Shown: in pieces, positions 9,416 through 43,464 of the stretch
Position numbering within the stretch: the stretch's first letter is position 1
How the letters are laid out: every line of letters starts with the position of its first letter
Assembly (NCBI GenBank): GCA_029936315.1
Contig: JAPYTD010000002.1
Coordinates: 30,459-94,458 of the forward strand
From: Planctomycetota bacterium
GTDB lineage: Bacteria; Planctomycetota; UBA1135; UBA2386
Length of the DNA stretch: 64,000 nucleotides
Direction of reading: 5' to 3'
Made by a program: the position numbers and the translations under genes
The notes under the pieces: generated by a model
Databases searched by the model: none
Seen by the model: only the letters and a program-made list of their open reading frames with translations
What the model was told of the DNA's origin: nothing

Positions 9416-9464
9416 AGTCATAATCGCCCCCTCCGCCCCAGGCAACCAAAAGCTCATCCACACC

Positions 9465-11039: not shown

Positions 11040-11061
11040 CCGGCCGCCAACCACCCGTGCA

Positions 11062-11943: not shown

Positions 11944-11951
11944 CCCTCCCG

Positions 11952-12890: not shown

Positions 12891-12914
12891 GTACGGCGAC
12901 GAAGCACCGCGCTG

Positions 12915-13970: not shown

Positions 13971-14210
13971 GCGATTCCTGGTTTGGCCTAGGCATGGCAC
14001 AAACAAGCAGCGCTTCAGCCAACCCGAACGCCACTACGACACGATCCTGCCCTTGCGAGAGCGCGTCAACCCGCAAGTTCAGGGAGCCGACCGAGCCCAA
14101 GACGCATGCTTGCAAGCACTGGACAAACCGCCGCTCGAGGGCGAGAGCAAGCGGGCCTGGTTCGGCCGTGTGCTCCAGAACCTGAGCCGCCAGAAACATC
14201 GCGGTGACCG

Positions 14211-18018: not shown

Positions 18019-18214
18019 CTTGTTGAGGTGTTCCAAAGTAAACACGGCCGCTTTCTCCTCACGGCACGGAATCCCCACACAACGTTCCAAACGGCTCCTA
18101 GACACCCTAGGACGGTCGAGCAATCGCATAGGCACTGCAGAACTAAACTCCAGCGACCGTCGCAAAGAGCAATCCCCCACCGATCGCCACTGCTGCACGG
18201 TGATCCAAGCGACT

Positions 18215-19432
18215 TCAGAGCAGTTCGGCAAGCGCAGTGATCAGCCGCTCAACTTCCGCCGGCGAGTTGTAGTGCACGAGGCTGGCGCGGATCACTCCGT
18301 CCCGGTCCATGAGACCCATGTCGCGAATCGCGCGATAGGCGTAGAAGTGGCCCCAGCGCAGGGCGAGTCGGCGCTCGTCGAGCCGCGGCGGAAGCTCACT
18401 GGAACGCATCCCGTCGACGCTGAAGGCGACGGTCGGAACGCGACGCGCGGGGTCAGCCGCTGGCACGCCGTGCAGCGTCACGCGCGGATGTTCGACGAGG
18501 AAGTCGATCAGCGGTGCGATCAGCTGCGACTCCCATGCGGCGACATCGGCGAAGATCCCTGCCAACCGCTCCGCACTTGGCTCCGGACTCTGTGCCCCCT
18601 CGTCGAGGCTCGTCAGGTATTCGCAGATACCGGGCAACGAGGCCACCAACTCGTGATTCACGCCCCCCGGCTCAAGCTTGCCCGGGACGTCGTGCTCGCC
18701 GAAGAAGAAGTGGCACTGACCCTTCGCATGCTCAAGAAGCTCACGCCTGCCGAAGAGCACCGCTTGGTGCGGACCGTAGACCTTGTAGAGGCTAGCGACG
18801 TAGAAATCGACGCCGAGCGAACGCACGTCGACAGCACGATGCGGGGCAAACGCCACCCCATCGACAAAGCTCCACGCACCCGCCTCGCGGATGCGTGCGG
18901 CGATGCTCGCCACGTCGTGAATCGTGCCCGTGACGTTCGGGCAATGCGTGAAGGCGACGAGTCGCGTGCGGTCGGATAGCAGCGGCTCCAGGTCCTCAAG
19001 TTCGAGCGCGAGAGTCTCTGGCCGGAAGCGCCACTCCTTGACGACGACACCGCGCTCTTCGAGCCCCCGCCACGGACCAATGTTTGCCTCGTGATCGAGA
19101 TTGGTGACGATCACCTCATCGCCGGGCGCGAACCGCGCGCCAAGAGCGCACGCCATGCGCTGCACCAGCACCGTCGTCGAGGCACCATGCACGATCTCTC
19201 CCGGGTCCGCATTGAATAGGCACGCCGCCGCGCGGCGTCCTGCGTCGACGGCTGCAACCGCGTCCCGGGACAGCGCGTAGGTTGCCCCATGTTGCACGGC
19301 ATGGCGTTCCATATAGCCCGTGAGACGCTCGATCACGGGGCGGGCGGGCACCGTTCCGCCCGCGTTGTCGAATAGCGCCCAGTCGGATCGCAGGGCAGGA
19401 AACGAGGCGCGGGCGGCATTCAGGTCGAGCAT
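18215..19432 (-). CDS. Class-V aminotransferase, cysteine-desulfurase-like family
   Basis: FPALRSDWALFDNAGG...THCPNVTG...ASLYKVYGP (PLP Lys)...LRWGHFYAYR...VIRASLVHYNSPAEVERL. The position equivalent to the SufS GHHCA cysteine reads GHFYA. Confidence 0.85.
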   Translation of the reverse strand: MLDLNAARASFPALRSDWALFDNAGGTVPARPVIERLTGYMERHAVQHGATYALSRDAVAAVDAGRRAAACLFNADPGEIVHGASTTVLVQRMACALGARFAPGDEVIVTNLDHEANIGPWRGLEERGVVVKEWRFRPETLALELEDLEPLLSDRTRLVAFTHCPNVTGTIHDVASIAARIREAGAWSFVDGVAFAPHRAVDVRSLGVDFYVASLYKVYGPHQAVLFGRRELLEHAKGQCHFFFGEHDVPGKLEPGGVNHELVASLPGICEYLTSLDEGAQSPEPSAERLAGIFADVAAWESQLIAPLIDFLVEHPRVTLHGVPAADPARRVPTVAFSVDGMRSSELPPRLDERRLALRWGHFYAYRAIRDMGLMDRDGVIRASLVHYNSPAEVERLITALAELL

Positions 19433-19500: not shown

Positions 19501-21228
19501 CTACTTGTTCGGAGTCATGTACTCGAACCGGGCCAGATACCTGTCCACTTCTAGAAACCAAGCCAGCGGATGCGAGGCCTTGCCGTCTTTGGTCGAAGCC
19601 AGGCGTTGCTGCGCGGCGCTAGCGTAGACGGTGTCCGGATGGTCCCTGAGGATCGCCTCGATCGCCGAACGATCCTTGGTCGCGCATGCGGCCATGTAAG
19701 CGCGTCCCGCCGCCAGAACCCGCACTCCAGACCTCGTCGCCATGCGTTTCGTATAGGGCCGGAAGCGCCCATCGAGGGAGTTGCCGAACTTCCCTCGAGC
19801 CTTCTCGATCAACCGCGCAACACCGACCAGATCGCCAGTCGCGCCAACATGCGAGATGCACTCGAGCAGCCAGTCCGCCTCGACTTCGATCACGACCTTG
19901 AAGTAATGGCGTAGGAACCGGTCCACCTTGGTCTTGGCGGTCGCCGTCTTCAGGACTTGTGCCGCGCCAACATAGTTCTCGAACGACAACGCGTGGTAGA
20001 CGTCGATCAAGCTCGGGTCTTGGATGTCGCTGAGGCCAAAGCCAGGCGGCATGAACAGCTCTCCCGTGCTCGCTTGGCAAGGGTGCATGAACTTGTTGTC
20101 GCGCGCGTAGGTGCTGGTGTAGCAGTTGCCAAAGCGCCCAACGCCAACCTTGTTTCGCTTCATCGAGTAGAGCGGGCCGGTGTGGCCTCCGCCGTAGCTC
20201 AGGGCGTACAGGTATCGCCGGCCATTGGCACCACCGCCTGCCCCCTCACCGGACCCGTTGGTGCCGAAACGACGCAGACGGTCCGTGAACCCCCTCTTGC
20301 CCGGCAGGGTTGACATGTGGCCCGAAGCGTTGCCGTCGACCCGATCCTTGGAGTGGTCGCGCGTTGCCGCGCAGGCCAACATATCCGTCGACCAAGAGAT
20401 GATGCCCATCAGCATGCGGATCTCGTTGGCATAGAGAACGAACTCGGCCTCTTCGTAATCGATCAGGCGCGCCTTCGCCGCATTACCAAGCAGAACGGCC
20501 CCGGCACCAGCCGGTGCGACGGAACTCGCGAGCGCCATTGTGCGGTGGAGGTGGTCAACGTGCTGTTCGTAGCTCCGCGCCTTGGAAAGTGGCGGCATTG
20601 CGATTCCAGTCGGCGCAAACTTATCCGTCGTAGGATCCTCTCCCAGTTCGAGCGCTTCCCGCACATCGTTCCGATAGCCGTTGAACTCCCACATGCGCCG
20701 CGACATAGCCTTCGATGCCTTGGTCTGGATGGCGCCAACGTCTGGCAATATCAGCTCGCCGACCTTCGTTGCCGGCATCAGGAAGTGCTGCTGAAAGTGG
20801 AGCTGGGTCGACGGATTGAGGATGTAGTTGCGCCAGACTCGGCGCGTCATTGCCACCTCACGAAGTTCCGCGTCGGAGAGCGAAGCCAAGTGGCGGTGGT
20901 ACACAGCACGAATTGGCTCGTCGAGTATCACCGCGTAGCTTCGCTCGAGCGCGGCCAGTTTGTGATCGATGACCTTCTCAAGGCTCAGCCATGCCACCGG
21001 AGCGTCGAGCACCAGCCGAAACTGCTTGCGTCGCGTCGCAGCATCCTCGTCTTCAGCTGGCGGCTTCGCCAAGTACTTCAGAGCTTCCTGAATCTCGGGT
21101 GCGAGGTCACGAACCATCGCAGGCGCGGCCTTAGGAACACGTTGGCCGGAGCGGTCCTGATCGGATCTTTGCCCGGTCAGTGAAGAGGCAGCAATGCAAC
21201 AGGTGAGGATGACTAAGGGGCAACGCAT
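19501..21228 (-). CDS. Secreted CAP/SCP (YkwD-like) domain protein with long helical flanks; paralog B
   Basis: Signal peptide MRCPLVILTCCIAASSLTG. CAP-like core: ANEIRMLMGI..W...LACAATRDHSKD....GHMS..PGKRGFTDRLRRFG...GEGAGGG...YGGGHTGPLYS...KVGVG. It is paralogous to 24447..26165. Confidence 0.72.
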   Translation of the reverse strand: MRCPLVILTCCIAASSLTGQRSDQDRSGQRVPKAAPAMVRDLAPEIQEALKYLAKPPAEDEDAATRRKQFRLVLDAPVAWLSLEKVIDHKLAALERSYAVILDEPIRAVYHRHLASLSDAELREVAMTRRVWRNYILNPSTQLHFQQHFLMPATKVGELILPDVGAIQTKASKAMSRRMWEFNGYRNDVREALELGEDPTTDKFAPTGIAMPPLSKARSYEQHVDHLHRTMALASSVAPAGAGAVLLGNAAKARLIDYEEAEFVLYANEIRMLMGIISWSTDMLACAATRDHSKDRVDGNASGHMSTLPGKRGFTDRLRRFGTNGSGEGAGGGANGRRYLYALSYGGGHTGPLYSMKRNKVGVGRFGNCYTSTYARDNKFMHPCQASTGELFMPPGFGLSDIQDPSLIDVYHALSFENYVGAAQVLKTATAKTKVDRFLRHYFKVVIEVEADWLLECISHVGATGDLVGVARLIEKARGKFGNSLDGRFRPYTKRMATRSGVRVLAAGRAYMAACATKDRSAIEAILRDHPDTVYASAAQQRLASTKDGKASHPLAWFLEVDRYLARFEYMTPNK

Positions 21229-23369: not shown

Positions 23370-24380
23370 CTACTTCTTGCCGACGAGGATCTTGATCATC
23401 GCTTGTGCCGAGGCATCGCCGACCAGGCAATAGCTCTCCGCGCTGTTGTGCCAGTGGCTCTTTTGCCGGCCAGGTTTGTGTATTTGGAAGTGTCGGGTCG
23501 GGACCGCGGTGCATCGATTGTGCCTGGCCGCGGCAGCGATTTGCTGTGGCTCGATACTCTTGCCGAGGAAGCCGGCAACGCCCGAAGCCTTCGGACCACC
23601 CATCCCGCTTGTCGCAATGACGAAGGGCAGGTTCTTGACGCCGAGGTCTTTGCGTAGGTCGACAATGAAGTTGCTCATGTTGGCCTCATACTCCTTCGCG
23701 AAGTTCTTGGAGCAGGCGTCGTTCCAACCCTGATGCCAGAGGAAGCCAACGATTTCGTAGCCTTGGCCGCGATAGCTTGGGAAGTGCTTCTTCAAGTTGC
23801 CGAGCACCATCTGCACTTCTTCGAGCATGCTCCGGTAGCGCAAGCCGAATTGCTGCTTGATGTCATCGAGTGAGGCGTTGGGGTTCTTCTTCTTCTTCTT
23901 TGCCAGCATCGCTTGCAGGGTGGCGTGCTCTGGCAGCTTCGAACTCGGTGGGCGGAAGGTTGCGGCAAGCGCCTGACCACCCCAGGCAGTCTTGATGAGC
24001 AGCACCTGCGACTTGTAGTGCTCGCCGAGGAGGTGACCAAAGGTGAGTTCGGGGCCGATGCTCTTGGCGTTGGCTCCGAGTCCGACCCTCAGGTTGCACT
24101 TGATGACGGATCCTCTCCCTGGCTTGTGAAAGTACCAGACATCCTTGCGCTCAACCCATTCTCCATCCCTCTTCAGATAGGCAAACTGCTGTTGCGCGGC
24201 GGCGTAGTCGAGATCGCCGTCCTTGTTCATGCTGATCCTGCCGTGGCCTTGCATGTTGGATTGGCCGGCGAGGATGAACACCTTGATCTTCGCCTTGGAG
24301 CCAGTGTCCTGGGCCAGGATCGAGTGCGGTGTGCACAGGGCAGCCAGAGTCGCCGTGATGTAGAAGAATACGCGCGTCAT
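23370..24380 (-). CDS. Secreted sialate-O-acetylesterase-like (DUF303/SGNH) protein
   Basis: Signal peptide MTRVFFYITATLAALCTPHSILAQ. IKVFILAGQSNMQGHG...SIGPELTFGHLLG...VLLIKTAWGGQAL..RPPSS...GFLWHQGWND. Confidence 0.85.
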   Translation of the reverse strand: MTRVFFYITATLAALCTPHSILAQDTGSKAKIKVFILAGQSNMQGHGRISMNKDGDLDYAAAQQQFAYLKRDGEWVERKDVWYFHKPGRGSVIKCNLRVGLGANAKSIGPELTFGHLLGEHYKSQVLLIKTAWGGQALAATFRPPSSKLPEHATLQAMLAKKKKKNPNASLDDIKQQFGLRYRSMLEEVQMVLGNLKKHFPSYRGQGYEIVGFLWHQGWNDACSKNFAKEYEANMSNFIVDLRKDLGVKNLPFVIATSGMGGPKASGVAGFLGKSIEPQQIAAAARHNRCTAVPTRHFQIHKPGRQKSHWHNSAESYCLVGDASAQAMIKILVGKK

Positions 24381-24446: not shown

Positions 24447-26165
24447 CTAGCGCTTTGCCGTCGGGGGGTATTCGTACTTCTCGACGGTTGCCTGCTTGCC
24501 GACAAAGTAGGCGAACGCTGCGCCCGGTTCGTCAGCAGCTTTGGCGGCCTCTGCGTAGGCGGTGCCGCCATACCTTCTGATGAGTGCCCTGCTGGCCTTG
24601 GCTCGCCCCGCGCCGTCAAGATCGCCTAGCACCATGCGATGGAAGGCCTCGCCGGCCTTCAACGCTTGCGCGAGTGCGGGATCGGCCAACATGGCGAGAC
24701 GGAGTATGCCCTCCTCCTCGAATGCCGGGTTGCCCTTGAACATCTTGGCGCCAGCCAGCAGTCGACGGCGAGCCTCGTAGACGTCCCCGGCGTCTTCGAT
24801 CGCAGCTGATGAATCTAGGATCCAGTCGATCTCGGTCTGCACCGCCGCGCGGAAGAAACGCAACAGCATGCTCGTCTTCTCGTTTGAGGGACGAGCCTTC
24901 GCCAAGGCCCGAGCGGCATGACCAAACTCACCTGACTGCAGCTTTGAGAAGATCGAGCGGGCTGATCCGCGCAATCGGGTGTTGCTCCAACCGGGAGGCA
25001 GCACGAGTTCGTTGGCCACCGCCTGACAGTCGTGCACGATGCTGCGATCGGTGCCGTAGATGCTGGTGTAGGCGTTCTTCCGCCGACCGACGCCGACGCA
25101 GTTCCTCCTCAGGGAGTAGAGCGGCCCGGTATGACCACCGCCATAGCTCAAGCCGTTGATGTAGCCGCGGCCGCTGGCGCCGCCACCGACACCCTCACTG
25201 CCAAAGCGCCTGGCGCCCATGCGACGGGATCGATCGGTGAAGCCGCGCTTCTCCTTGATCGACGACATGTGCCCCGTGGCCAGTCCTTTGGTTCGGTCAT
25301 TGGAATGGTCGCGAGCAACTGCGTTGCCGAGAGGGTCCACGCGCCAGACGATGGTGCCGGAGAGCATTCGCATCTCATTGCCGAAGAGCACGTACTCCGC
25401 TTCCTGCACATCGATCTCTTGCGCCGCCTCGTCGTTGTACATCAGAACCGCCTGGGCTCCAGGCGGCGCGACGGTGTGTGCCAAGACCATACTGCGTTCG
25501 GTATGATGCAGACTATCGAGGAAGGTTGGTGGTTGGTCGAGAGGCGCGTACGCGATCTGCGTGGGAGAGAGCTTGCCGACCGTTGGATCCGTTTGCATGC
25601 CGAGGGCTGTGTGGGCCATCGCTTGGTACTCGCCAAGTTCCATCAGGGTCTTGCGTTGGCTGCACACTGGCTCGTCCTTCACGTCTTCCGCACGCAGTAG
25701 CAAGGCTTCGCCGGCAGCCTTCATCGGCGCCAGAAACTCGGCTTGAAAGTTGCTCCGGTGCCCGCCATGGAGCACGTAGCTCCGCCACAAACGTCGAGCG
25801 CGCTGCACGATCATGATCTGTTCGTCGCTGAGACTGATCAGGTGCCTCATGTAGGCGTCCTCAAGCCAGGCTTGCAACGCAACGGTGTACTTGCCGCGCA
25901 AGGACGCCAGTTGTTTGTCGATGTGCTGCAACGCCAATCGCGCACCACCAGGACCGAGGCCGATCACCTGCTCGATCAGGTATCGACGTTCGCTGCGGTC
26001 GATCGACTTGGCGAACGTATCGAGGCCCTCGACAATCTGTCTCTTCTGTTCGCTGCTGAGCTTCGCATCGGTGGCCGGACTCGGCGCGGCCTTCTTTGCC
26101 ACCTGACCTGGGCAAGCGGAGACCAAGAGCACGAACACAGCCAGCGATGAGATGCACGTTATCAT
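24447..26165 (-). CDS. Secreted CAP/SCP (YkwD-like) domain protein with long helical flanks; paralog A
   Basis: ATG at 26165 gives MITCISSLAVFVLLVSACPGQ. The core GNEMRMLSG..W....GNAVARDHSND...GHMS..KEKRGFTDRSRRMG...SEGVGGG...YGGGHTGPLYS...CVGVG is colinear with 19501..21228. Confidence 0.72.
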   Translation of the reverse strand: MITCISSLAVFVLLVSACPGQVAKKAAPSPATDAKLSSEQKRQIVEGLDTFAKSIDRSERRYLIEQVIGLGPGGARLALQHIDKQLASLRGKYTVALQAWLEDAYMRHLISLSDEQIMIVQRARRLWRSYVLHGGHRSNFQAEFLAPMKAAGEALLLRAEDVKDEPVCSQRKTLMELGEYQAMAHTALGMQTDPTVGKLSPTQIAYAPLDQPPTFLDSLHHTERSMVLAHTVAPPGAQAVLMYNDEAAQEIDVQEAEYVLFGNEMRMLSGTIVWRVDPLGNAVARDHSNDRTKGLATGHMSSIKEKRGFTDRSRRMGARRFGSEGVGGGASGRGYINGLSYGGGHTGPLYSLRRNCVGVGRRKNAYTSIYGTDRSIVHDCQAVANELVLPPGWSNTRLRGSARSIFSKLQSGEFGHAARALAKARPSNEKTSMLLRFFRAAVQTEIDWILDSSAAIEDAGDVYEARRRLLAGAKMFKGNPAFEEEGILRLAMLADPALAQALKAGEAFHRMVLGDLDGAGRAKASRALIRRYGGTAYAEAAKAADEPGAAFAYFVGKQATVEKYEYPPTAKR

Positions 26166-26616
26166 CGTGCGTAAGCCTATCAGACGTGCGCGGGCGCCGA
26201 CCGTCTGCGATGGGCTCCCATTCTGGTTCTGGCTATTCGTGCGCGACGTCTTGCTTGGCAAGCGACGAAAGCCACCTCAGCGTGCACGCGTGAGCACTTC
26301 GATCAAGTGCACGCACAGCAGCAACTCAGAACACGAATACCAAAGTCCCCTACCGCGATGCCGCTTGCCAGGAAGATGCGGCACGACCGATTGCATGATC
26401 TCGGTCAACGCGCGACCGCTGCGGTGCGTGCGTGGCCCGCCACATGTGCGCAGCGTAACTCCACTGCAACGAGATCCGGTTTGCGGGCCGGGCGGCTGAC
26501 GATGGAGTATGATCGCATTCTCAGGTTGGCTTACCAGCGGCCCGGCCTCGCGCGTTAGCTATTCGTCTCGCCGGAAGCTGCCTGCCATACGCTCCACCCT
26601 TGCGCGCGACCGGACC

Positions 26617-27780
26617 ATGAAGACTCCCCCATCTCGTTCGTTCTTCGCCCACGCAATCACGGTCGCGGCACTCACGTGTGCTGTGTCGGCACCTTTGTCC
26701 GCACAATGGACCGGTGAATGGTCCATGGACATGAGCAGCGGCGCAATCGCGGTCGACATCTCCGGCAGCGGCAACGACGGCACGCTCGCAAACTTCAACG
26801 GAACCCCGTGGGTTCCCGGCATGGTAGTCAACGCTCTCTCGTTCGACGGTGTGGACGACTACGTATCGCTTAACGCGCAGGCTTCGATCTATGAAGGGCT
26901 GGGCGCACCGTATTCCGTTGCGTACTGGGTCAAGGCGCCGGCACAACCGAACGTGTTCGTCTACGCAGAGGGCGCGACGTCCAGCACCGCCATCTTGATC
27001 TTTGGCAGCGGCCAGTACCCAGCCCAATCGGACAAGTTCCGCGTCTACTGTCGCAACGATCAGGGCAATGCTCCGTTCAGCGGCCTGTCGAACGCCGTCG
27101 TCTATGACGACACCTGGCACCACATCGCTTTTGTCGATGTGTCGGGCCAGATCACCCTCTACGTGGATGGTGTGGTCGACAGCGGCAACATCTCCTACGA
27201 CCCTGCGCGCCTACCCGGCATGCCGGGTCATGGAACGTTTTCGATGACCACGACGGCGATTGGGGCCCTCGTGCGCGGTTCCGTCTGTTGCCACACGAAC
27301 GGGCTGGTGGACGACCTCCGCCTCTACAAGTTCGCGATGTCGCCCACGGACGTACTGCAGGCGATGGTCGGCATCCCGGTGCTGCCAACGTCGGCGAGCA
27401 TCGGCGAGTACGGAGTGGGTTGCGGAGCAGGTCCACTCGACCTTGCGCCCAGTGGCAGCGCCGTGATCGGTGGCTCTGGTCTGCAATTGCAGTTGCAGTC
27501 CGGCACCCCGAATGCATTCGGTTTCTTGGTTTGTGGCTTGGGCGCGATTGCTCCGATTGATCTGGGTCCGGCCGGTTTCAGCGGGTGCACGCTCTACCCG
27601 AACAACTTCGTTTCTGCATTCCTTGGCGTGCTCGATGCTGCTGGAACCGCACCGGCGTTCCTGTTCGCGATCCCGAACAACCCGGCCCTGGCCTTTACGC
27701 AACTCAACTGCCAAGCGGTAGCCCTGGATGCGGTCGGGCTTGAGTTCTCCGACGTAGTCGAGGCGACGCTCGGGAACTGA
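26617..27780 (+). CDS. Secreted LamG (concanavalin-A-like lectin) domain protein with shared C-terminal module
   Basis: ATG at 26617 gives MKTPPSRSFFAHAITVAALTCAVSAPLSAQ. LamG-like region: GNDGTLANFNG..W.PG...ALSFDGVDDYVSL...WHHIAFV...LYVDGV...DDLRLY. C-terminus: YGVGCGAGPLDL...FAIPNNPALAFTQLNCQAVALDAVGLEFSDVVEATLGN. Confidence 0.8.
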   Translation: MKTPPSRSFFAHAITVAALTCAVSAPLSAQWTGEWSMDMSSGAIAVDISGSGNDGTLANFNGTPWVPGMVVNALSFDGVDDYVSLNAQASIYEGLGAPYSVAYWVKAPAQPNVFVYAEGATSSTAILIFGSGQYPAQSDKFRVYCRNDQGNAPFSGLSNAVVYDDTWHHIAFVDVSGQITLYVDGVVDSGNISYDPARLPGMPGHGTFSMTTTAIGALVRGSVCCHTNGLVDDLRLYKFAMSPTDVLQAMVGIPVLPTSASIGEYGVGCGAGPLDLAPSGSAVIGGSGLQLQLQSGTPNAFGFLVCGLGAIAPIDLGPAGFSGCTLYPNNFVSAFLGVLDAAGTAPAFLFAIPNNPALAFTQLNCQAVALDAVGLEFSDVVEATLGN

Positions 27781-28040
27781 ACCCCCAGCGGCGACATCGC
27801 GGCTGGCGGCGTCAAACAAACAGCTGAACGTCTGCGCCGTTCGCGCGCAACGCCAAGCAGTTTGGCAATTCGAGCGCCTGTCCGGCTGACGAGCGAGGCG
27901 ATAGCCAATTGCGTGTGCTCACTGGCAGCACACTACGGAGTTGTCACCGGGCGCCATGCGGTTCTCGCCGAACGCAGCAACGCCCTCTAGGATTCTCGGC
28001 AGATCGAACTGCAACGTTCCGAGACACCGACAGAATCCGC

Positions 28041-29693
28041 ATGAAACATCTCCCCATCGCTCTCTCACTGGCCTTTGCACTCTGCACGGAGGCATCGGCG
28101 CAGCTGCACCTCGCCAACTCGTTTGGCGATCACATGGTCTTGCAACGTGACATCGGCGCCAGGGTCTGGGGCACCGCAACACCTGGCGAAACCGTTGCGA
28201 TCGCTTTCGCCGGCAAGTCGGCAACGGCAACAGCAGCGAAGCACGGTCGCTGGATCGCCACCCTACCTCCCATGCCGGCTAACGCAGAAGGTCGAGAGCT
28301 CGTCGTGACCGGCTCTAGCGACAGCGTGCGAATCAGAGATGTACTCGTCGGGGATGTCTGGGTCTGTGGCGGGCAGAGCAACATGGCATGGACCATGAGC
28401 GGATCGCGCGATGCAGACATCGAGATCGATTCCGCCGATACGCCCCAAGTCCGCTACCTGCGTATGCCACAGATCGCGATCGCCGAGCCACAGACCGACT
28501 TTCCCGTCGCGAGCCCGACGCACAAGGTTGGCAACTGGCGACTCTGCACTCCAGAGCAAGTCGAAGCCTGCACCGCCGTGGGTTACTACTTCGCCCGCCG
28601 CCTACATCGTCGACTACGGATTCCGATCGGAATCATCGACACCTCCTGGGGCGGCACGATGGCGCAACACTGGTGCTCCAAGGCAACGCTTCGAACGTTC
28701 GCCACGATGAACTCCTACTTCGCCACCTACGAAGCCAAACGCAAGGAATGGATCGACGGCGGCAAGGAAGAGGGAGCCAATCGACGCTACGAGGCCGACG
28801 TCGCAACTTGGCAGAAAGCTCGGGATGCCGCCAAGGCTTCCGGAGAGCGCGAGCCACGTCGCCCCAACAAGCGCAACTACGAGAACCCGGGTGACCAAGG
28901 ACACCCAGGGGCGATGTTCAACGGCATGATCGAGCCAATCAAGAACACGGCACTGCGCGGAGTCGTGTTCTACCAAGGCGAAAACAATTCATTCGGAGAG
29001 ACCTGGAAGCCCTTCTCGAGCACATTCCCCGCCGTCATCCGTGACTGGCGGAGAGCATTCGGAGTCTCCGATTTGCCGTTCTGCAACATCCAGATTGCCG
29101 GCTGGAGCACGCGTCGCACGATGACCTACGACATGAACCACCACACCAACATCATTCGTGAGGTGCAGCTGGATACCTGGCAAGACACCGAGAACACCGG
29201 ACTCATCGTCACCTACGACTGCAACAGCAATGGCAGCATCCACCCGGGACGCAAACTGCCCGTCGGGGAACGCACGGCGCGGTGGGCGCTAGCCGAGGTC
29301 TACGGGACAACGGACCGTCGCAACAAGCGGCCAATCGAATGGCGCGGCCCGCTCTACGAGGGAATGCGGATCGTCGACAACAAGATCTTCGTCTCGTTCG
29401 TCAAGGAGACTGCGCGAGGACTGCGACTCAACAAGGATGTCGCGTTCGGCTTCTATGTGGCCGGCGAGGACAAGACCTTCCACCACGCATCGGCACGCAT
29501 TCACGGCAAGACGAGCGAGGTCGAGATCTGGTGTGATGCTGTCAAGCAACCGGTGGCGGCACGCTACGGCTGGTCCAATCTTCCGGCAGGTACACTTCTG
29601 AACGGTCGCGAGCTACCGGCCTACCCGTTCCGCACGGACAACTGGCCGATGGAGCCCCATCAGTCGACCGGATCCTACGTTCGCGGGAAGTAG
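28041..29693 (+). CDS. Sialate O-acetylesterase-family protein (classical long form)
   Basis: ATG at 28041 gives MKHLPIALSLAFALCTEASAQ. LANSFGDHMVLQRD...VWVCGGQSNMAW...GIIDTSWGGT...VVFYQGENN. Confidence 0.88.
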   Translation: MKHLPIALSLAFALCTEASAQLHLANSFGDHMVLQRDIGARVWGTATPGETVAIAFAGKSATATAAKHGRWIATLPPMPANAEGRELVVTGSSDSVRIRDVLVGDVWVCGGQSNMAWTMSGSRDADIEIDSADTPQVRYLRMPQIAIAEPQTDFPVASPTHKVGNWRLCTPEQVEACTAVGYYFARRLHRRLRIPIGIIDTSWGGTMAQHWCSKATLRTFATMNSYFATYEAKRKEWIDGGKEEGANRRYEADVATWQKARDAAKASGEREPRRPNKRNYENPGDQGHPGAMFNGMIEPIKNTALRGVVFYQGENNSFGETWKPFSSTFPAVIRDWRRAFGVSDLPFCNIQIAGWSTRRTMTYDMNHHTNIIREVQLDTWQDTENTGLIVTYDCNSNGSIHPGRKLPVGERTARWALAEVYGTTDRRNKRPIEWRGPLYEGMRIVDNKIFVSFVKETARGLRLNKDVAFGFYVAGEDKTFHHASARIHGKTSEVEIWCDAVKQPVAARYGWSNLPAGTLLNGRELPAYPFRTDNWPMEPHQSTGSYVRGK

Positions 29694-29782
29694 CACAAAC
29701 AAGCAGCGGTGCGCGCGCGAGTTGTCGAAGGGAGTTGCTCCGACCTGCGACGAACCGTGTCGAGCGCGTGCACAGCGGCTAC

Positions 29783-30271
29783 TCAGATCGTGGTCGCTTC
29801 GATCGCCGGGCCAAACGCGAATGCGCCAGTCGACGGCGAGACGCCCATGGACTGTAGGCGGAATACGAAACCGGTCGGTGCGTTCGCCGGGATCGTCAGC
29901 GTCGTTCCGGCAGAACCTTGTTGGCAAGGCAGCGGCACGAAAGGCGGCGCCGACGTGAGCCCCACGTCGAGTACGAACACGTTGCTCAGCAGCAGGGAGT
30001 TACCGAAGCCAGGCACGCTCACGCAGGGGCCAGGCGTACCGAAGGCGATGACATACAGCGTCGACGGCGCACTAAAGTGCATGATGTTTCGCGAGGTGCC
30101 AACGCCGACCACGCTGCCGACCATCGGCTGACATGACACGGGACCGCAGTCCTGGCCATAGAGGACGGTCAGAAAGCCGCCGCCTGCCATGGTCAAACCA
30201 ATGTCCTGTTGCGCCGTGGCAGGCACGACTAGCGCGAGGAAGAGAATGAGGCTGGGCAGGGTCTTCTTCAT
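29783..30271 (-). CDS. Small secreted protein consisting of a signal peptide plus a stand-alone copy of the shared C-terminal-type module
   Basis: ATG at 30271 gives MKKTLPSLILFLALVVPATAQ. The remainder (...SAGTTLTIPANAPTGFVFRLQSMGVSPSTGAFAFGPAIEATTI) follows the same pattern as the C-termini at 565.., 27400.. and 56551... Confidence 0.65.
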   Translation of the reverse strand: MKKTLPSLILFLALVVPATAQQDIGLTMAGGGFLTVLYGQDCGPVSCQPMVGSVVGVGTSRNIMHFSAPSTLYVIAFGTPGPCVSVPGFGNSLLLSNVFVLDVGLTSAPPFVPLPCQQGSAGTTLTIPANAPTGFVFRLQSMGVSPSTGAFAFGPAIEATTI

Positions 30272-30399: not shown

Positions 30400-33300
30400 A
30401 TGCGCCTCGCGACCCTTGTCCCTCTATGGCTGACCGTTGCAGCGGCATTGCCCGGCAGTGCAACCGCGTCGCCACAATCACCCCAGCTTTCGTTCTTCGA
30501 GACCCGCATCCGTCCGGTGCTCGCCGAACACTGCTACCGATGTCACAATAGTTCCGACAGCCAGAAGGCGCGCCTCGCCCTCGACTATCGCGCCGGGCTG
30601 CGCCGCGGTGGCAAGTCAGGTCCGGCCATCGTGGTCGGGGGCGCCGCCGAGAGCCTGCTGATGCGCGCAATCCGGCACCAGCACCCGAAGTTGCGCATGC
30701 CGAAGGAGGGTGCGAAGCTCAGCGATGCCGTTATCAGGGACTTCGAGCAGTGGATCGATAGCGGCGCCGAGGACCCGCGCGACGACCCGCCAGCCGCGAC
30801 CAAACTCGCCGAGACGATCAGTTGGGACACCATCCGCCGCCGCCGCATGCAGTGGTGGAGCTTTCAACCAATCGCAAGCAACAGGCCGCCAACGCTCGCC
30901 GGCGCCGGGCAGTCGCCACACCCCGTTGACCGCTTTGTCTTCGACCGCCTGCGCCGTGCGGGGCTCGAACTGGCGCCGCGTGCTGATCGTCGCACACTGC
31001 TGCGCCGGGTAACCTTCGCACTTACCGGCTTGCCGCCGACAGAAGCAGAGGTCATGGCGTTTGTCGCCGATGACTCGGCCAACGCCTACGAGGCCGTTGT
31101 CGATCGACTGCTGGCCCAGCCGGCGTTCGGCGAGCGCTGGGCGCGCCATTGGATGGACTGGCTGCGCTACGCCGATTCGCACGGCAGTGAAGGCGACCCC
31201 AACATCCCCCACGCGTGGCGATACCGCGACTACCTGATCCGGGCGCTGAACGCCGACGTGCCATTCGACCAACTCGTCAAGGAGCACATCGCAGGCGACC
31301 TACTGGACGAGCCTCGCATCGACTATGAGCAAGGTATCAACCAGTCGCGCATCGGCACCGCCCAGTTTCGCATGGTGCAACACGGCTTCGCGCCAACCGA
31401 TGCCCTCGAAGAGCAGGTGCTATTCACGGACAACCAGATCGACGTGGTGTTCAAGGCATTCATGGGACTGACCGTGTCCTGCGCGCGCTGCCACGATCAC
31501 AAGTTCGACGCCATCGGCCAAGACGACTTCTATGCCGTCTACGGCATCTTCGCGAGTTGCCGACCCGCGACGGTCACGACGGACACGCCCGCACGATTGG
31601 CAACCAACAAGACCGAGCTTGTAGCCAGCAAAGCCCGCATCAAACATGGCCTCGCAGCGAACTGGTTGTCGACGGTCGAAGACGTGACCAAGAGCCTGCT
31701 CGCGGCCGACCCAACAGTGCAAGACCTGCTCGCCAAGGCTAGCAAGGACGACAAGAACCCGCTGCACGCGTGGGCCCGCCTGGCGCCCGTCGAGCCCGCA
31801 AAGTTCGAAAACAACTGGCGGGCGCTGCTGCACGCTTGGCGCGACAGTCGCGTACGTCTGACCCGGCAGCAAGCAAACGCCGTCGGCTGGGATCTTGCCG
31901 GAGACGACTGCGCAAAGTGGCATTCCTACGGTGCCGGACTCACCGGTCAACCATCGCCGGCCGGCGGGTTTCGCGTTCTTCCCGACGGGGACCTCATCGT
32001 CGACTCACTGTTGCCAGCCGGCGTCTACTCGCACCTGCTATCAAGCAAGCACAACGGCGTATTGACCTCGCCGCGATTCTCGTTCGACATGAATGCGATC
32101 TACGTCCGCGTTCTCGGCGACGGCCGCGCCCGCGCGCGCTACGTCGTGCAAAACTATCCGCGTAAAGGGACGGTGTACCCAATCCACCACATGTCAGGTG
32201 GCAAATCGCGATGGGTGCGCTGGGACACAGCCTACTGGCAAGGCGACCACGGCTACCTCGAGCTATCGACGGCTGCCGACCAAGCGGTCGAAGCCGACAC
32301 CCGTGCGACGCGCTCGTGGTTCGGAATCACGCAAGCGATCCTGGTCTCGGCCGAGCAACAGCAACGCGGGGAAAGGCCGGTCGACGAGGCTGCCGAGTTT
32401 GTGACGCCGTTGTTCCTGGCGCTGGCCAAAGCCCCCCCCACGAGCATGGCAATGCTCGAACGTGGCTACGCGAAGGCACTGCGCACCTGCATCCGCGCCT
32501 GGCAGGGGGCCACGCTCTCAAACGAACAGGCGCGATTCTTGGGGTTCTTCGTCCGCCACGGTCTGCTGCCAGTGAAGTTGAGCGAACTCGGATCACTCGC
32601 CAACGAAGTCACCCACTACCGCCGCCTCGAAGAGCAGGTCCCGATTCCCCGCCGCGTGCCGGGCATCCTCGAAGCCGAGCCGTTCGATCAACCGCTGTTC
32701 CACAAGGGCGATCACAAGCAGCCGGGCAAGCCCGTGCGTCGACGGTTCCTGGCGGCAATCGATGCCACCCCATACGAAACCGCAACCAGCGGTCGCCTCG
32801 AACTCGCCAACGACTTTGTGCGCAGGGACAACCCACTCACGGCCCGCGTCGCGGTCAACCGACTCTGGCACCACGTGTTCGGCCGAGGCATCGTCGCGAC
32901 AACCGACAACTTCGGGCGCCTCGGCGACGAACCGACGCATCCGAAGCTGCTCGACTACCTGGCACAGTCTTTCGTCGACTCCGGCTGGTCGAGCAAGCAG
33001 ATGATCCGGTTGCTCGTCACCTCCCAGACGTTCCAGGCGAGCAGCAGCGCGTCAACGCACGCTGCCGAAGTCGATGCTTCCAATCGACTGAGATCGCATT
33101 TCCGCGTGCAGCGCTTGCAGGCCGAAGCGATACGCGACGCGATGATCGCCGTCAGCGGGCAGCTCGACCGCAGCATGTACGGCCCGGCCGTCGCCGGCGG
33201 TTCCCGTCGCCGCAGCGTCTACGTGCGCGTCAAACGCAACAGCCTCGACCCGTTCTTGTCGACCTTCGACGCACCCGCACCGCACACCACCCACGGCCGC

Positions 33301-34479
33301 CGGGAATCGACCAACGTGCCGGCGCAATCGCTGACCTTGCTCAATGACCCATTTGTGATCGCCCAGGCCAGAAGCTGGGCAAACGCAATCTTGTCGGATC
33401 GCTCGATCGACAGCGACACGGCCAAGATCCAGCGCATGTTTCTGGCCGCGTTCGGGCGCGAGGCCAGCGCAGACGAGCTGCAACGCTCCGCCGACTTCCT
33501 AACCGCAATCACGGCCCAAGCCGCGACCACGGCGCGCGACATCACCAGATTGCAGACCGCAGTTGCCGAGGCCCGAACTCAAAAAGCCGCGCTCATGGCA
33601 CCAACTCGCAAGCGCCTGCTGGCATCGATCGACCAGAACGCAGAAGCGGCTCCCACCGGTCTGAAGCCGATTGCAAACTGGGAATTCGATGGCGACCTGA
33701 ACGACTCCGTTGGCTCTCTGCATGGATCGATGCGCGGCACGGTACAGCTCCAGGACGGCGCGCTCGTGCTGACTGGGCACGGACACGTCGAGACGGTCCG
33801 GCTGACCAGAGACTTGCGCGAGAAGACCCTGGAGGCATGGGTCGTTCTCGACAACCTTGGACAACGCGGTGGTGGCGTGATCAGCGTCGAGTCGGTTGGC
33901 GGCAAGGTATTCGATGCGATCGTCTTCGGCGAACGCGATCCGATGCAGTGGCTGCCCGGCAGCGACAACTTCCGCCGCACCCAGTCGCTCGGTGGACCAG
34001 TCGAGTCCGAGGCCAAGAGCCGGCCGGTGCACGTAGCGATCAGTTACCGCCGCGATGGTACGATCACCGGCTATCGCGATGGCCGCCCCTATGGCAAGCC
34101 CTACCAGTCCTCGCCGGCCACCTTCGCCGCGGGCCAAAGCGTGGTGCTGTTCGGGTTGCGGCACTCCCCCACCAATGGCAGCAAGTACCTTCGCGGTCGC
34201 GTGCTGCGCGCCCGCCTCTACGACCGCGCACTCACGCCGGCTGAGGTCGACGCGAGTTTTCACATGGAGCGCCAGTGGATCGGGGATGCGCAGATTCTCG
34301 CCGCAATGACGACCAGCCAGCGCAACCAGCACGCACGCATCAGCGCCCGCATCGAAGAACTCGCGCGCCAACTCGCGGAGATCGAAGAACCTCGCCAGCG
34401 CCGCACGGGGCCACAGCAAGCCTGGCAAGACCTCGCGCAAAGCCTGTTCAACTTCAAAGAGTTCTTGTACTTGCGATGA
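30400..34479 (+). CDS. PSCyt1 (planctomycete cytochrome c) + DUF1549 (PSCyt2) + DUF1553 (PSD1) + LamG giant protein
   Basis: Heme-like motif CYRCH near the N-terminus. DUF1549 block: [10 protein letters not shown]...[19 protein letters not shown]...[18 protein letters not shown]. Then [13 protein letters not shown]1553 block: [23 protein letters not shown] LamG-like region follows near the C-terminus. Confidence 0.92.
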
Positions 34480-35921
34480 GACCAGACATGCCCGACGGCC
34501 TCCCGATCTCACGACGCAGCATGCTGCGCAACTGTTCGACCGGCTTCGGCCTGGTCGCGCTGAACAGCCTGCTGGGTCAAACCGTCAACGCCCAGTCACC
34601 GCTTTCGAACGACGGGGTAAGGCGGCCGCACTTCACACCGAAGGCCAAACACGTAATCTTCTGCTACATGTCGGGCGGCGTTTCGCACGTCGATTCGTTC
34701 GACCCCAAGCCACGCCTTGAGAAGGAAGCCGGGCAGCCGATGCCGATGCCCATCGAGCGCACGCAGTTCAACAAGAACGGCAAGATCCAACCGAGTCATT
34801 GGCCGTTTCATCGACACGGTGAAAGCGGCATTGCGGTCAGCGAGCTGTTCCCACACATGGCATCGGTGGTCGACGAGTTGGCGATCGTGCGCTCGATGAC
34901 GGCGGACTTCAGCGAACACGCGCAAGGCAACTACTTCATGCACACGGGGTTTCCGTTCATGGGGCACCCCAGTGCCGGGGCTTGGGCTAGCTACGGACTC
35001 GGCAGCGACGCCAAGGATCTGCCAAGCTTCGTCGTGCTACGGAGCGGCAACGCGGCGATCCCGCACGGTGGTGTTGGGCTGTTCAGCAGTGGCTTCCTGC
35101 CAGCCAACCACCAGGCATCGATCATCCGCGCCGACCGCGGCGATGCGCTGCGCAACTTGGTGCCCACCGAGTCAGACCGTTTACAGCGCGCACGGATCGA
35201 TTTCATCCAACGCATGGATCGTAATTTCGCGGCATCGCTCGATTCGAATCCGCACATCGAATCCGCGATCGAGAACTACGAACTCGCGTATCGCATGCAA
35301 ACCGCCGTGCCGGAGTTCACGGACTTGACTGGCGAGACCAAGGCCACCAAGAAACTGTACGGCATGCTCGATGCGGACCGTCGCAAGGCCGACTACGGTC
35401 GGCAGTGCCTGTTGGCGCGACGGCTGGTCGAGCGCGGCGTTCGCTTCATCGAACTCAGCACACTGTCGGCGAACATCGGCGGCGGCAATGGCGCCAACCC
35501 TTGGGACCAACACAGCCAGCTGAAGCGGGGCCACGGCCAAATGGCTCACCAGGTCGACCAACCGATTGCGGCACTGATCATGGACTTGAAGCGGCGCGGC
35601 CTGCTCGACGACACTCTCGTCATCTGGGCCGGCGAGTTCGGGCGCACGCCGTTCGCACAGGGTAGCGATGGTCGTGACCACAATCCGTTCGGCTTCACGA
35701 TCTGGCTCGCGGGTGGCGGCATCAAGCCAGGAGTGATCTACGGCGCGACCGACGAATACGGCTACCACGCCGTGCAAGACAAGTGCACCGTCTACGACCT
35801 ATGGGCAACGGTGCTGCACCAACTCGGCATCCGCCACATGGACCTGACCTATCGCTACGGCGGCCGCGACTTGCGATTGACCGATGTCCATGGCCACGTG
35901 TTGCACAAGATTCTGCAGTAG
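34476..35921 (+). CDS. DUF1501 (sulfatase/alkaline-phosphatase-superfamily) protein with Tat-type signal
   Basis: ATG 34476 overlaps the upstream TGA (ATGA). [24 protein letters not shown] is a twin-arginine-like leader. [18 protein letters not shown]...[17 protein letters not shown] is typical DUF1501. Confidence 0.92.
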
Positions 35922-36089: not shown

Positions 36090-37496
36090 TCAGGCCATCA
36101 GTTGCCGCACCAACTTGCCGTGCACATCCGTCAACCGATAGTCACGGCCCTGGAATCGGAACGTCAGTCGTTCGTGGTTGATGCCCAGCAAGTGCAACAC
36201 CGTTGCGTGCATGTCATGCAAGTGCACCGGATCCTCGACAACGGTGTAGCCGAGGTCATCGGTCTTGCCGATCGTCTGACCAGGCTGGATGCCGCCACCC
36301 GCAAACCACATCGTGAACGCGCGCGGGTTGTGGTCGCGACCAAGAACAGTCTTGCTGCGCACTTCCCGCATCGGTGTGCGACCGAACTCCCCGCCCCAAA
36401 CAACCAACGTGTCCTCGAGCATGCCGCGCTGCGCCAAATCGAGCACGAGCGCCGCTGCCGCCTGATCGGTCTGTCGGCACATATTGGGCAAGCCGTGCAA
36501 CAGGTCGTCACTTTTATTGGAACCGTGATGATCCCAGCCGCGATGGATGACTTGCACGTGGCGCACGCCGCGTTCCAACAGGCGCCGCGCCAACAGGCAG
36601 TTGTTCGCGAACGAACGCTTGCCAGGTTTGCTGCCATACAGGCGGTGCACATGGTCCGGTTCGCTACCAAGGTCCCCCAACTCCGGCACGCTATCCTGCA
36701 TGCGGTAGGCCAACTGGTAGGCCTCGCTGCGCGCGACGATCTCGGGGTCTTGAATCTGCTCGTGGCGCTGCGCGTTCAGTTCCCTAAGCAGGTCGATGCC
36801 ACGCTTTCGCGCGACGCGATCCATCGTCCTGGGATCACTGATACACGGCACGAGATCACCGCGCGTGCGCAGTTCGACACCCTGTAACGTCGAAGGCAAG
36901 AAGCCATTGGCCCAGCAGGCCGAGCCAGCGCCCGGATCAATCTTGCCAGACACGAGCACACAGAAGCCGGGCAAGTTGCGACTCTCAGCGCCGAGACCAA
37001 ACAACAGCCAACTGCCTAGGCTCGGCCGACCAACGAGGTGATGCCCGGTGTTGGCGAAGACCTGCGCCGGGCCGTGGTTGAACGGATTGGTGTAGACCGA
37101 TTTGACGAACGCCAGGCGGTCCGCAATCCCCGCCGTGTGTGGCAACAACTCGCTAATCTCGGCCTTGGATTCGCCGTAGTTGCGAAACGAGTACGGCGAG
37201 CCAAGCAGGTTTGGGATGCCCTTCAAGAACGCGAACCGCTGCCCCTTGAGCAACTCCTTGGGCACGGGCTCGCCGTCGTGCTTGCGCAGCACCGGCTTGT
37301 CGTCGAACAGATCGAGCGACGAGGGCGCACCCGCCATGAACAACTGCACGATGCGTTTTGCGCGGGGCACATGATGCGGGCCTCCACCCGACTCGCCGAG
37401 GCGAGGCACCGCCATAGCAGGTAGCACACTCGCACCAAGGGCAGCACTCGCCGCAGCAATCACCTGACGGCGATTGGGTTCAAAGGCAATGCTCAT
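36090..37496 (-). CDS. DUF1501 protein with Tat-type signal
   Basis: MSIAFEPNRRQVIAAASAALGASVLPAMA. LFMAGAPSSLDLFDDKP...RDHNPRAFTMWFAGGGIQ. The start overlaps the stop of 37493..39268 (ATGA). Confidence 0.92.
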   Translation of the reverse strand: MSIAFEPNRRQVIAAASAALGASVLPAMAVPRLGESGGGPHHVPRAKRIVQLFMAGAPSSLDLFDDKPVLRKHDGEPVPKELLKGQRFAFLKGIPNLLGSPYSFRNYGESKAEISELLPHTAGIADRLAFVKSVYTNPFNHGPAQVFANTGHHLVGRPSLGSWLLFGLGAESRNLPGFCVLVSGKIDPGAGSACWANGFLPSTLQGVELRTRGDLVPCISDPRTMDRVARKRGIDLLRELNAQRHEQIQDPEIVARSEAYQLAYRMQDSVPELGDLGSEPDHVHRLYGSKPGKRSFANNCLLARRLLERGVRHVQVIHRGWDHHGSNKSDDLLHGLPNMCRQTDQAAAALVLDLAQRGMLEDTLVVWGGEFGRTPMREVRSKTVLGRDHNPRAFTMWFAGGGIQPGQTIGKTDDLGYTVVEDPVHLHDMHATVLHLLGINHERLTFRFQGRDYRLTDVHGKLVRQLMA

Positions 37497-39268
37497 CCGC
37501 GGTTCAACGTCTCATCGAGGTTTAGGAGGATAATCGCGATGCGCTGCCAGGCACGCGCTTGTGGTTCGGCCGCCAGAGCCTTCTGCAACGAATCAAGTTC
37601 GCTTCTGGTTGGCGTTCGCGAGGTGCAGGCCACGAAGCCGAGCTGAAGTTGGTCACGCACATCTCCGCTGGCAGACGACATGCGGACAGCCAACGCATTC
37701 GCAGCCGCCAACGCCGTCGGGTCGTTGAGTCCGACCAACGCCTGCATCGGTGTATTGCTGCGTTCGCGTTGCACCTGGCAGACCTCGCGCGACGGCGCAT
37801 CATATGCCTTGAACGCGACGAACGGCGCCGTTCGGCGCCAATACGTGTAGAGCCCACGTCGCCACCGGTCTTCGCCCTTGCTGGTCGGCCACCTCATGCT
37901 GACCTTGTTCATCGGCACGACGCCACTGGTGTCCGCTTGCATTGGATAGACGCTGGGCCCACCCACCTTGCGCGACAACAAACCGGCCGCGACCAACCAC
38001 GTGTCGCGAATGCGCTCGGCATCGAGGCGAAATCGCGTGCCACGAGCATAGAAGCGGTTGTCCGGATCCCGTTTGCGCAGTTCGGCACTGACAACGGTGC
38101 TGCGTTGGTAGACATCCGACTGCACGATCGTGCGAATCAACCGCTTCTGACTCCACCCCACCCGCACAAACTCGGTGGCAAGCCAGTCAAGCAAGTCGAC
38201 ATGCAGAGGCTTCGGCGCCTGCACACCAAAGTCCTCGGGCGTATCGATCAACGACTGGCCGAGCAGTTCCATCCAGATGCGATTGGCGGCAACGCGCGGG
38301 GTCAACGGGTTGTCGGGCGACACCAACCAGCGCGCCAACGAGAGTCGGTCCCTCGGCGCATCCCCAACCACTTCTTCGAGCGTCGGCGAGAACGCGGCGG
38401 GCAAGTGCGCTGGCACAGCTTCTCCCGGGCTGTCGAAGGCGCCGCGCAGACGAAGCCGCGTCACCGCCTTGGCGCCGCGCTTCTCGCGCAACGCCAGCGT
38501 CTTGCTGCCATCCTGCCGCTTGATTACGACCTCGTCTTGGGTCTCGAAGAACGCGACCAAACCATAGAACTCGCGCTGCGAAACGGGGTCGTACTTGTGG
38601 TCGTGACACTGCGCGCAATGCAATGTGCTTCCAAGCCAAGTCGTGCCGGTTGTGCTGGCACGATCGAGCAAACGCTCCCACCGCGCCTCCTTCGGATCCA
38701 CACCGCCTTCGTTGTTCAACATCGTGTGACGATGAAACCCCGTAGCGATACGCGTGCTTTCGTCGGCATCGGGCAGCATGTCGCCGGCCAACTGCTCGAT
38801 CGTGAAGCGATCAAACGGCAAATCACGATTGAGGGCATCGATCAGCCAATCGCGGTACGGCCATACACTGCGGCCACCGTCAAAGTTGTAGCCGTTGGTG
38901 TCGCCGTAGCGCGCCAGGTCGAGCCATGGTACCGCCCATCGTTCGCCGTAGTGGGGCGAGGCGAGCAACTGATCGACCAGCCGCCCATAAGCACCGTCTT
39001 TCTGATCCGCGAGAAACGCCTCAAGCTCTGCAAGCGTCGGCGGCAAACCGACCAAATCGAGATAGAGGCGACGCGCCAACGTCGCGCGGTCGGCGCGAGC
39101 AGTGGCGGCCAGGTTTGCTGCGGGCAACTTGGCCTCGACGAATGCATCGAGGATTGTGCGCGCCGCAATCGGTGGCTCTCGACGCACCGGTTTGCGATAG
39201 GCCCAATGCTCCTGGGGTTGCTGCGGCAGCAGCGCGGCTACTAGCGCGAGCGAAGCAAGCAAGGGCAT
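37493..39268 (-). CDS. DUF1549 + DUF1553 protein (no cytochrome or lectin module)
   Basis: HWAYRKP...ILDAFVEAKL...LARRLYLDLVGLPPTLAELEAF...YGERWAVPWLDLARYGDTNGY...CAQCHDHKYDP...NPLTPRVAANRIWMELLG. Confidence 0.92.
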   Translation of the reverse strand: MPLLASLALVAALLPQQPQEHWAYRKPVRREPPIAARTILDAFVEAKLPAANLAATARADRATLARRLYLDLVGLPPTLAELEAFLADQKDGAYGRLVDQLLASPHYGERWAVPWLDLARYGDTNGYNFDGGRSVWPYRDWLIDALNRDLPFDRFTIEQLAGDMLPDADESTRIATGFHRHTMLNNEGGVDPKEARWERLLDRASTTGTTWLGSTLHCAQCHDHKYDPVSQREFYGLVAFFETQDEVVIKRQDGSKTLALREKRGAKAVTRLRLRGAFDSPGEAVPAHLPAAFSPTLEEVVGDAPRDRLSLARWLVSPDNPLTPRVAANRIWMELLGQSLIDTPEDFGVQAPKPLHVDLLDWLATEFVRVGWSQKRLIRTIVQSDVYQRSTVVSAELRKRDPDNRFYARGTRFRLDAERIRDTWLVAAGLLSRKVGGPSVYPMQADTSGVVPMNKVSMRWPTSKGEDRWRRGLYTYWRRTAPFVAFKAYDAPSREVCQVQRERSNTPMQALVGLNDPTALAAANALAVRMSSASGDVRDQLQLGFVACTSRTPTRSELDSLQKALAAEPQARAWQRIAIILLNLDETLNRG

Positions 39269-43453: not shown

Positions 43454-43464
43454 GGACAATGTCA

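Follow-up and report, generated by a model that had tools for sequence, protein, structure and literature searches.

Secreted proteins with similar C-terminal segments

This analysis concerns a protein module at the C-terminus of secreted proteins, encoded on a stretch of 64,000 nucleotides from a Planctomycetota bacterium (assembly GCA_029936315.1, contig JAPYTD010000002.1, positions 30,459 to 94,458 of the forward strand). The whole stretch is referred to as the window. A first-pass annotation, made from the letters of the window, had assigned a common C-terminal module to four otherwise unrelated proteins, here termed A to D. The four open reading frames (ORFs) do lie at the coordinates given there, and their C-terminal segments are called tails in the following. 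All four proteins begin with a Sec-type signal peptide that ends in ...AQ. The proteins and their parts, with the sub-types defined further below, are:

565..1701, minus strand: protein A, 378 aa
568..942, minus strand: module copy of protein A, type 1, with the 'GxGC ... GC' cysteine pair; the last ~125 residues
943..1701, minus strand: signal peptide and ~230-residue N-terminal part of protein A, without family assignment
26617..27780, plus strand: protein B, 387 aa
26617..27408, plus strand: signal peptide and LamG domain (Laminin_G_3) of protein B, the domain at about 26845..27354
27409..27777, plus strand: module copy of protein B, type 1, followed by the stop codon at 27778..27780
56551..58407, minus strand: protein C, 618 aa
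56554..56940, minus strand: module copy of protein C, type 2, without the cysteine pair, last residues ...IMIQ
56947..58407, minus strand: signal peptide, five FG-GAP repeats and UnbV_ASPIC domain of protein C (NCBI name of the family: CRTAC1-like)
29783..30271, minus strand: protein D, a small secreted protein of 162 aa that belongs to a separate family

The LamG domain of protein B was recognised by Pfam PF13385 (Laminin_G_3) with E = 2e-16 at residues 77-246, and orthologues of the protein (P0001-P0004 and P0037) show 50-68% sequence identity. Protein C matches FG-GAP_3 (7.4e-47) and UnbV_ASPIC (5.6e-20), and a close relative, P0194, carries the name 'CRTAC1 family protein'. The N-terminal part of protein A had been called NIDO-like, a label that found no support, as its ~230 residues match nothing in Pfam, NCBIfam or the PDB sequences. 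The Pfam and NCBIfam scan also gave no match in protein D, and none over any of the four tails. In its NCBI version (P0005), protein D has 180 aa with the start at 30325.

Homology of the tails of proteins A, B and C

When the tails were compared by BLAST in a database of the four sequences, those of A and B were 32% identical along 117 aa, with E ~0.07, and the remaining pairs reached E = 0.08-0.5. With such weak values the sequences by themselves do not settle homology, and it is profile methods that decide the matter for three of the four tails.

The tails of A, B and C and of their few orthologues were combined into a starting profile, which was run exhaustively by HMMER against 1.84 billion cluster representatives. 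This resulted in 381 matches at E <= 1e-3, of which 31 reached E <= 1e-10 and 4 reached E <= 1e-30. A word-indexed homologue search gave chiefly orthologues and the family of protein D; the wider module family came from the exhaustive HMMER search.

Two hidden Markov models (HMMs) were then scored on the window. The first was built from 130 module sequences, none of them from the window, and was applied to 642 six-frame ORFs. It recognised C with E = 4.6e-39, B with 5.5e-26 and A with 3.2e-13, the best noise being a spurious ORF at 0.02. The second was obtained through a hand-made DNA pattern encoding LP[x]DLxxxGxPGCxL, which was scanned over one genome per GTDB species. This model consists only of 104 ORF tails with the DNA motif, is restricted to type 1 and has no dependence on the starting profile. 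Its scores are 5.6e-14 for B, 1e-7 for A, 3e-4 for C and 0.045 for D, with noise at 0.75 or above. Profiles built without any window sequence thus recognise A, B and C as members of the family. No carrier beyond these three was found by the module HMM search among the six-frame ORFs of the window.

Profile-profile comparison by hhalign is in line with this. The families of A and B align over 108 columns with E = 9e-6. When 124 type-1 and 112 type-2 sequences were compared, the two profiles aligned over 124 columns with a probability of 99.6% and E = 2.8e-24. Significance both between profiles and with external HMMs points to homology and excludes composition as its cause. As judged from these sequence profiles, the tails of A, B and C are one homologous domain, and the initial claim of a module common to four proteins stands for these three; for protein D no significant score was obtained.

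A merely compositional likeness of Gly/Ala/Pro/Leu-rich tails in a high-GC genome, without any true domain, would suit the weak BLAST values (0.07-0.5) and the frequent long spurious ORFs of this GC-rich genome, but has next to no probability and is refuted by the alignment of the two sub-type profiles, by HMM E-values down to 5e-39 where noise begins at 0.02, by the 31 representatives at E <= 1e-10 among 1.84 billion proteins and by the confident AlphaFold2 fold described below.

Sub-types, fold and novelty of the module

The module is a so far undescribed beta-sandwich domain which folds independently, measures about 120-135 residues and exists in two homologous sub-types. Type 1, to which the copies of A and B belong, has the consensus 'YGxGC...LPLDLxxxGxPGCxLY...IPNxPxLxGxxfyxQ...SNa...iG'. 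Each type-1 sequence contains at least two cysteines, and 86 of the 124 contain exactly two. This agrees with an oxidising compartment, and the conserved pair probably forms a disulfide. Type 2, represented by C, has the consensus '...PxDaGxxY...PGixLxDGRxiPLxxDxLf...GxLDaxGxA...IPxxPxLxG...itiQ' and mostly no cysteines at all. The extreme ends are characteristic as well: type-1 modules close with ...[ILV]G and one or two further residues, type-2 modules often with ...[IVL]x[IVL]Q, glutamine being the last residue in 45 of 112.

For the module of protein B, AlphaFold2 (with an alignment of 55 sequences) returned an all-beta model with 8-9 strands, a predicted local distance difference test (pLDDT) of 92.9 and a predicted template modelling score (pTM) of 0.85. 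A Foldseek search of the PDB with this model found only generic immunoglobulin (Ig)-like sandwiches (best E = 5.8e-3, template modelling score (TM) <= 0.49). These neighbours include Spo0M, complement C3 domains, transglutaminase barrels, the NIS1 effector and a GH158 accessory domain.

No domain of Pfam, NCBIfam or the PDB was matched by sequence. When 55 diverse module sequences were compared with all Pfam and NCBIfam models, there were zero matches even at E <= 1, and a profile search of the PDB sequences gave nothing below E = 0.6. A literature search found no account of the domain. The names which the carriers bear at NCBI ('LamG domain-containing', 'CRTAC1 family', 'ASPIC/UnbV', 'hypothetical') refer to N-terminal domains only, which is consistent with no model existing for the tail. 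The first-pass annotation had suspected an autonomous and possibly uncharacterised domain. Both points are borne out, as the module is predicted to fold confidently by itself, is joined to many unrelated N-terminal parts and has no counterpart in Pfam, NCBIfam or the PDB sequences.

Carriers, position in the protein and taxonomic range

Among 92 full-length carriers, the most frequent N-terminal partners are FG-GAP/ASPIC (15 carriers), Laminin_G_3 (14), Kelch propellers (7) and Peptidase_M14 (2). Golvesin_C, Beta-lactamase, PKD, Peptidase_S8, FGE-sulfatase, Amidase_3, BNR_4 and Reeler were each found in a single carrier.

The module is nearly always the last part of the protein. It ends at most 5 residues from the C-terminus in 139 of 154 domains from the top database matches and, among the matches listed for the genome loci, in 118 of 129. 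The assignment as a C-terminal module is thus correct for about 90% of the copies, but it does not hold without exception. In P0163 and P0164, the module is found right behind the signal peptide, upstream of an FGE-sulfatase or beta-lactamase domain. In P0137 and P0066, a LamG domain is followed by the module and then by a ~575-residue Gly-rich region, so that the module is internal. These two are B-like proteins from another Planctomycetota lineage, and their Gly-rich region has no similarity to the SASA-family esterase of the window. P0098 has a tandem arrangement, type 2 followed by type 1. Some other candidates were discarded: P0146, a repeat protein with 4-5 partial matches, is probably a false positive, and short database matches that resemble module-only proteins are truncated fragments of larger ones.

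All organism-named carriers in the database come from Planctomycetota metagenome-assembled genomes (MAGs). The DNA-motif scan yielded at least 119 stretches, and the module is present in at least 110 of these, which come from at least 65 assemblies. Among the matches listed, the source labels of the module stretches are nearly all Planctomycetota or a lineage within it, with a few given as 'bacterium' only. One stretch is from a Lake Biwa MAG with 'CL500-15' in its record name. Motif matches in Methanofollis and Saprospiraceae are due to chance, as neither contains the module.

Several carriers commonly occur in one genome. The window has three in 64 kb, at least 20 loci have two or more modules inside 8 kb, and among the matches listed of the motif scan one assembly has at least 8. 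As only 8 of the 130 representative modules contain the scanned motif, the number of carriers in a genome probably runs into the tens, a figure that is an extrapolation and not a count. In summary, the domain is extracytoplasmic, is specific to uncultured Planctomycetota lineages and is promiscuously attached, almost always terminally, to many secreted proteins of this one bacterial lineage.

Protein D

Protein D had been presented as a module-only protein. It belongs to a separate family of secreted proteins of ~160 residues with four invariant cysteines and no Pfam match, and its similarity to the module is never significant. About 30 homologues were found (54-65% identity), and those with a named source are from Planctomycetota MAGs. 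In two other genomes (loci L124 and L126), the gene is located between a Bat/VWA operon and a gene for a Sortilin-Vps10/BNR protein of ~1050-1080 residues.

It can nevertheless be argued that all four proteins share the module and that D is a free-standing copy. The two module HMMs score D with E = 0.045-0.05, which places it among the best non-member ORFs of the window (4th with the motif-derived HMM, 5th and behind one spurious ORF with the 130-sequence HMM). The register is consistent, 'YGQDCGP' corresponding to 'YGxGCG' and 'TLTIPANAPTGFVFRLQ' to 'xLxIPNxPxLxGxxfyxQ'. The AlphaFold2 model of D is a beta-sandwich (pLDDT 83.9) with eight strands ordered as in the module, and 8xgl and 6pal are among the PDB neighbours of both models. 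However, alignment of the D family (28 sequences) with the module profiles by hhalign gave E = 0.0077-0.36 and a probability of 5% at most. An HMM of the D family scores real modules with 8 bits or less, where shuffled controls already reach 6 bits, and in a set of 7097 ORFs it failed to recover any of the 132 that bear the module. The cysteine pattern differs, and D has an extra N-terminal strand. D thus has no significant match to the family as defined by HMMs. The chances are roughly even that it is a remote homologue without a significant score, and we put the full claim of a free-standing copy at slightly less than that.

Genomic context

The genes around the carriers were annotated as follows:

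28041..29693 (also listed from 27909), plus strand: SASA-family esterase gene between B and D (Pfam PF03629, E = 8.5e-15)
15745..18231, minus strand: SASA-family gene
23370..24380, minus strand: SASA-family gene
30400..35921, plus strand: PSCyt/DUF1549/DUF1553 + DUF1501 gene pair
36090..39268, minus strand: PSCyt/DUF1549/DUF1553 + DUF1501 gene pair
41963..47664, minus strand: PSCyt/DUF1549/DUF1553 + DUF1501 gene pair
9264..14006 and 40266..41885: hydroxyproline-type catabolic set
6936..9644: DPP-IV peptidase gene
19501..21228, minus strand: ORF of 575 aa, no Pfam match
24447..26261, minus strand: ORF of 604 aa, no Pfam match, N-terminus signal-anchor-like

Proteins B and D had been reported as two carriers flanking a sialate O-acetylesterase gene. 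This arrangement turned out to be coincidental: the adjacency of B and the SASA-family gene is not kept at locus L127, which has a B orthologue, and D adjoins no esterase in the other genomes (L124, L126). The three SASA-family genes are paralogous, lie within 14 kb and are all without the module. One of the DUF1553 proteins of the window also has a LamG domain, and another has PA14 and a Mal s 1-like propeller. The hydroxyproline-type set, which adjoins the DPP-IV gene, comprises a Pro_racemase family gene, a DHDPS-like gene, an aldehyde dehydrogenase, a GntR/FCD regulator and an FAD oxidoreductase. Overall, the window is typical Planctomycetota DNA for the scavenging of glycoconjugates and peptides. 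No secretion machinery is encoded in its 64 kb, and T9SS genes such as those for PorV, Sov and PorU are likewise missing from it.

Clustering of neighbouring ORFs at the module loci (at least 110) was uninformative with respect to a conserved neighbouring gene, because spurious antisense ORFs and the carriers themselves made up the bulk of the result. At loci L005-L123, antisense stop-to-stop ORFs of more than 1000 aa are common in the GC-rich MAGs, and this calls for caution in ORF-based analyses.

Possible functions of the module

With a confidence that stays just below an even chance, we favour the view that the module is a non-catalytic terminal tethering domain. The N-terminal signal peptides would take the carriers out through the Sec pathway. 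The terminal domain would then bind a common partner, either a component of the cell envelope or surface or a common polymer. Such binding would keep otherwise soluble hydrolases, lectin-like proteins and propeller proteins on the cell surface or on the substrate.

Three observations argue for tethering. N-terminal, internal and tandem copies are not expected of an export signal that is read from the C-terminus, and they favour a tether. The fold class is that of accessory binding modules. In addition, a catalytic domain is missing from many carriers, which are binding proteins (LamG, Kelch, FG-GAP), and we take this to suggest surface display rather than the targeting of enzymes to a substrate. 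Several points weigh on the other side. Gly, Pro, Leu and Asp make up most of the conserved positions, which gives these a structural look, and at the sequence level no obvious aromatic platform for binding stood out. The nearest solved structures (best E = 5.8e-3, TM <= 0.49) are too distant for a transfer of function. Finally, the almost invariable location at the terminus and the conservation of the last residues are more usual in sorting tags than in ordinary binding modules.

The main rival to tethering is a C-terminal sorting or secretion signal which resembles the C-terminal domain (CTD) of the type IX secretion system (T9SS) and is read by a lineage-specific outer-membrane machinery. 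This machinery would export the cargo or attach it to the surface, possibly with cleavage of the domain. The location of about 90% of the copies at the very C-terminus, with no more than 5 residues behind them, the conserved last residues, the diverse cargo with signal peptides and the lineage-restricted, multi-copy occurrence all fit this proposal, and the predicted beta-sandwich would be of the same general fold as the T9SS CTD (PMC4804311). However, N-terminal, internal and tandem copies occur. At E <= 1, the 55 family members match not one model of Pfam or NCBIfam, those for the T9SS sorting domain included. The module is larger than T9SS CTDs, no T9SS CTD structure is among the top 50 fold matches in the PDB, and the window lacks genes for a secretion machinery. 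In addition, PMC4804311 and PMC5445135 report T9SS from Bacteroidetes only. We consider a sorting tag rather unlikely on this balance.

A carbohydrate-binding module (CBM) or similar polymer-binding module would direct the carriers to a substrate, either dissolved or particulate, and not to the cell. The beta-sandwich is typical of CBMs, and glycoside hydrolase Ig-like accessory domains, e.g. 6pal, are among the PDB neighbours. Genes for the scavenging of glycans and peptides abound in the genomic surroundings (three SASA esterases, DPP-IV, LamG proteins), and the rare cases of flexible position and the tandem copies would also suit such a role. Points against it are the partners, which are peptidases, amidases and propellers without a common substrate, the strict terminal position, which is unusual for CBMs, and the failure of any CBM family in Pfam to match at E <= 1. 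A CBM-like role is quite unlikely, and it overlaps with tethering, from which it differs solely in the ligand.

A further and speculative proposal, to which we assign a similarly low probability, is that the module is the address tag of an unrecognised system for protein sorting or surface attachment, used by uncultured Planctomycetota mostly of freshwater, groundwater and soil. It would be a functional analogue of the T9SS CTD that is unrelated to it in evolution, with a dedicated translocon, a sortase-like enzyme or a surface receptor. Protein D could in this case be distantly related and stand alone, either as a competitor of the tag or as an adaptor.

The first-pass annotation had listed sorting, anchoring and ligand binding as possible roles. 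A strict C-terminal export signal is disfavoured by the rare N-terminal, internal and tandem copies; all three roles are candidates.

Planctomycetota are important degraders of complex organic matter, and the way in which they place their enzymes outside the cell is poorly understood. The lineages that bear the module have no cultured members. A terminal domain on probably tens of secreted proteins per genome could serve as a practical marker for the surface and secreted proteome of these MAGs. It is a candidate for a new Pfam-type family and a starting point in the search for the partner by which the carriers are held or exported. Should it turn out to be a sorting tag, the module would define a route of secretion or attachment that is new; should it turn out to be a binding module, it would point to a common ligand of importance to these organisms.

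Comparison with known systems

The signals of PEP-CTERM/exosortase and LPXTG/sortase systems are also C-terminal and are also found on diverse secreted proteins. They are only 25-35 residues long, a motif being followed by a transmembrane helix and a basic tail, whereas the module is a soluble beta domain of ~125 residues that ends in a beta strand. No hydrophobic helix is present at the tails, and no NCBIfam sorting-signal model was matched.

Similarities also exist to the T9SS CTD ('Por secretion tail') of Bacteroidota. Like the CTD, the module is mostly located at the extreme C-terminus of functionally unrelated proteins with signal peptides and is predicted to be a beta-sandwich, and both occur in one lineage with many copies per genome and low identity between copies. 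A T9SS CTD comprises roughly 70-100 residues, compared to ~125 for the module, which furthermore is occasionally N-terminal, internal or tandem. The T9SS CTD models matched neither the four tails of the window nor the 55 modules at E <= 1. We know of no T9SS in Planctomycetota. The initial statement that the tails resemble neither PEP-CTERM and LPXTG signals nor the Por/T9SS tail in sequence is in agreement with these results.

Tethering of the dockerin/cohesin type has been proposed for freshwater Planctomycetes under the name 'planctosome' (PMC6461901). In that proposal, secreted peptidases (M14 included) and other enzymes are tethered to the surface by a terminal non-catalytic module, and some of the module-bearing MAGs share this kind of lake habitat. 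Dockerins, however, are small Ca-binding helical modules, and the Pfam cohesin and dockerin models give no match to the module.

Accessory domains such as PKD, Big, FN3 and the CBMs have in common with the module that they are autonomous all-beta sandwiches of ~100-140 residues which are shuffled among hydrolases and binding proteins, and the nearest PDB folds are generic of this class. Differences are that no Pfam family matches the module (CBM models included, with nothing below E = 0.6 in the PDB sequences either), that ~90% of its copies are strictly terminal while those domains are commonly internal or repeated, and that it is confined to Planctomycetota MAGs. By analogy, the module would work most like a T9SS CTD or like the terminal tethering modules (dockerins, CBMs). 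In itself, it is a new family among the terminal beta-sandwich accessory domains.

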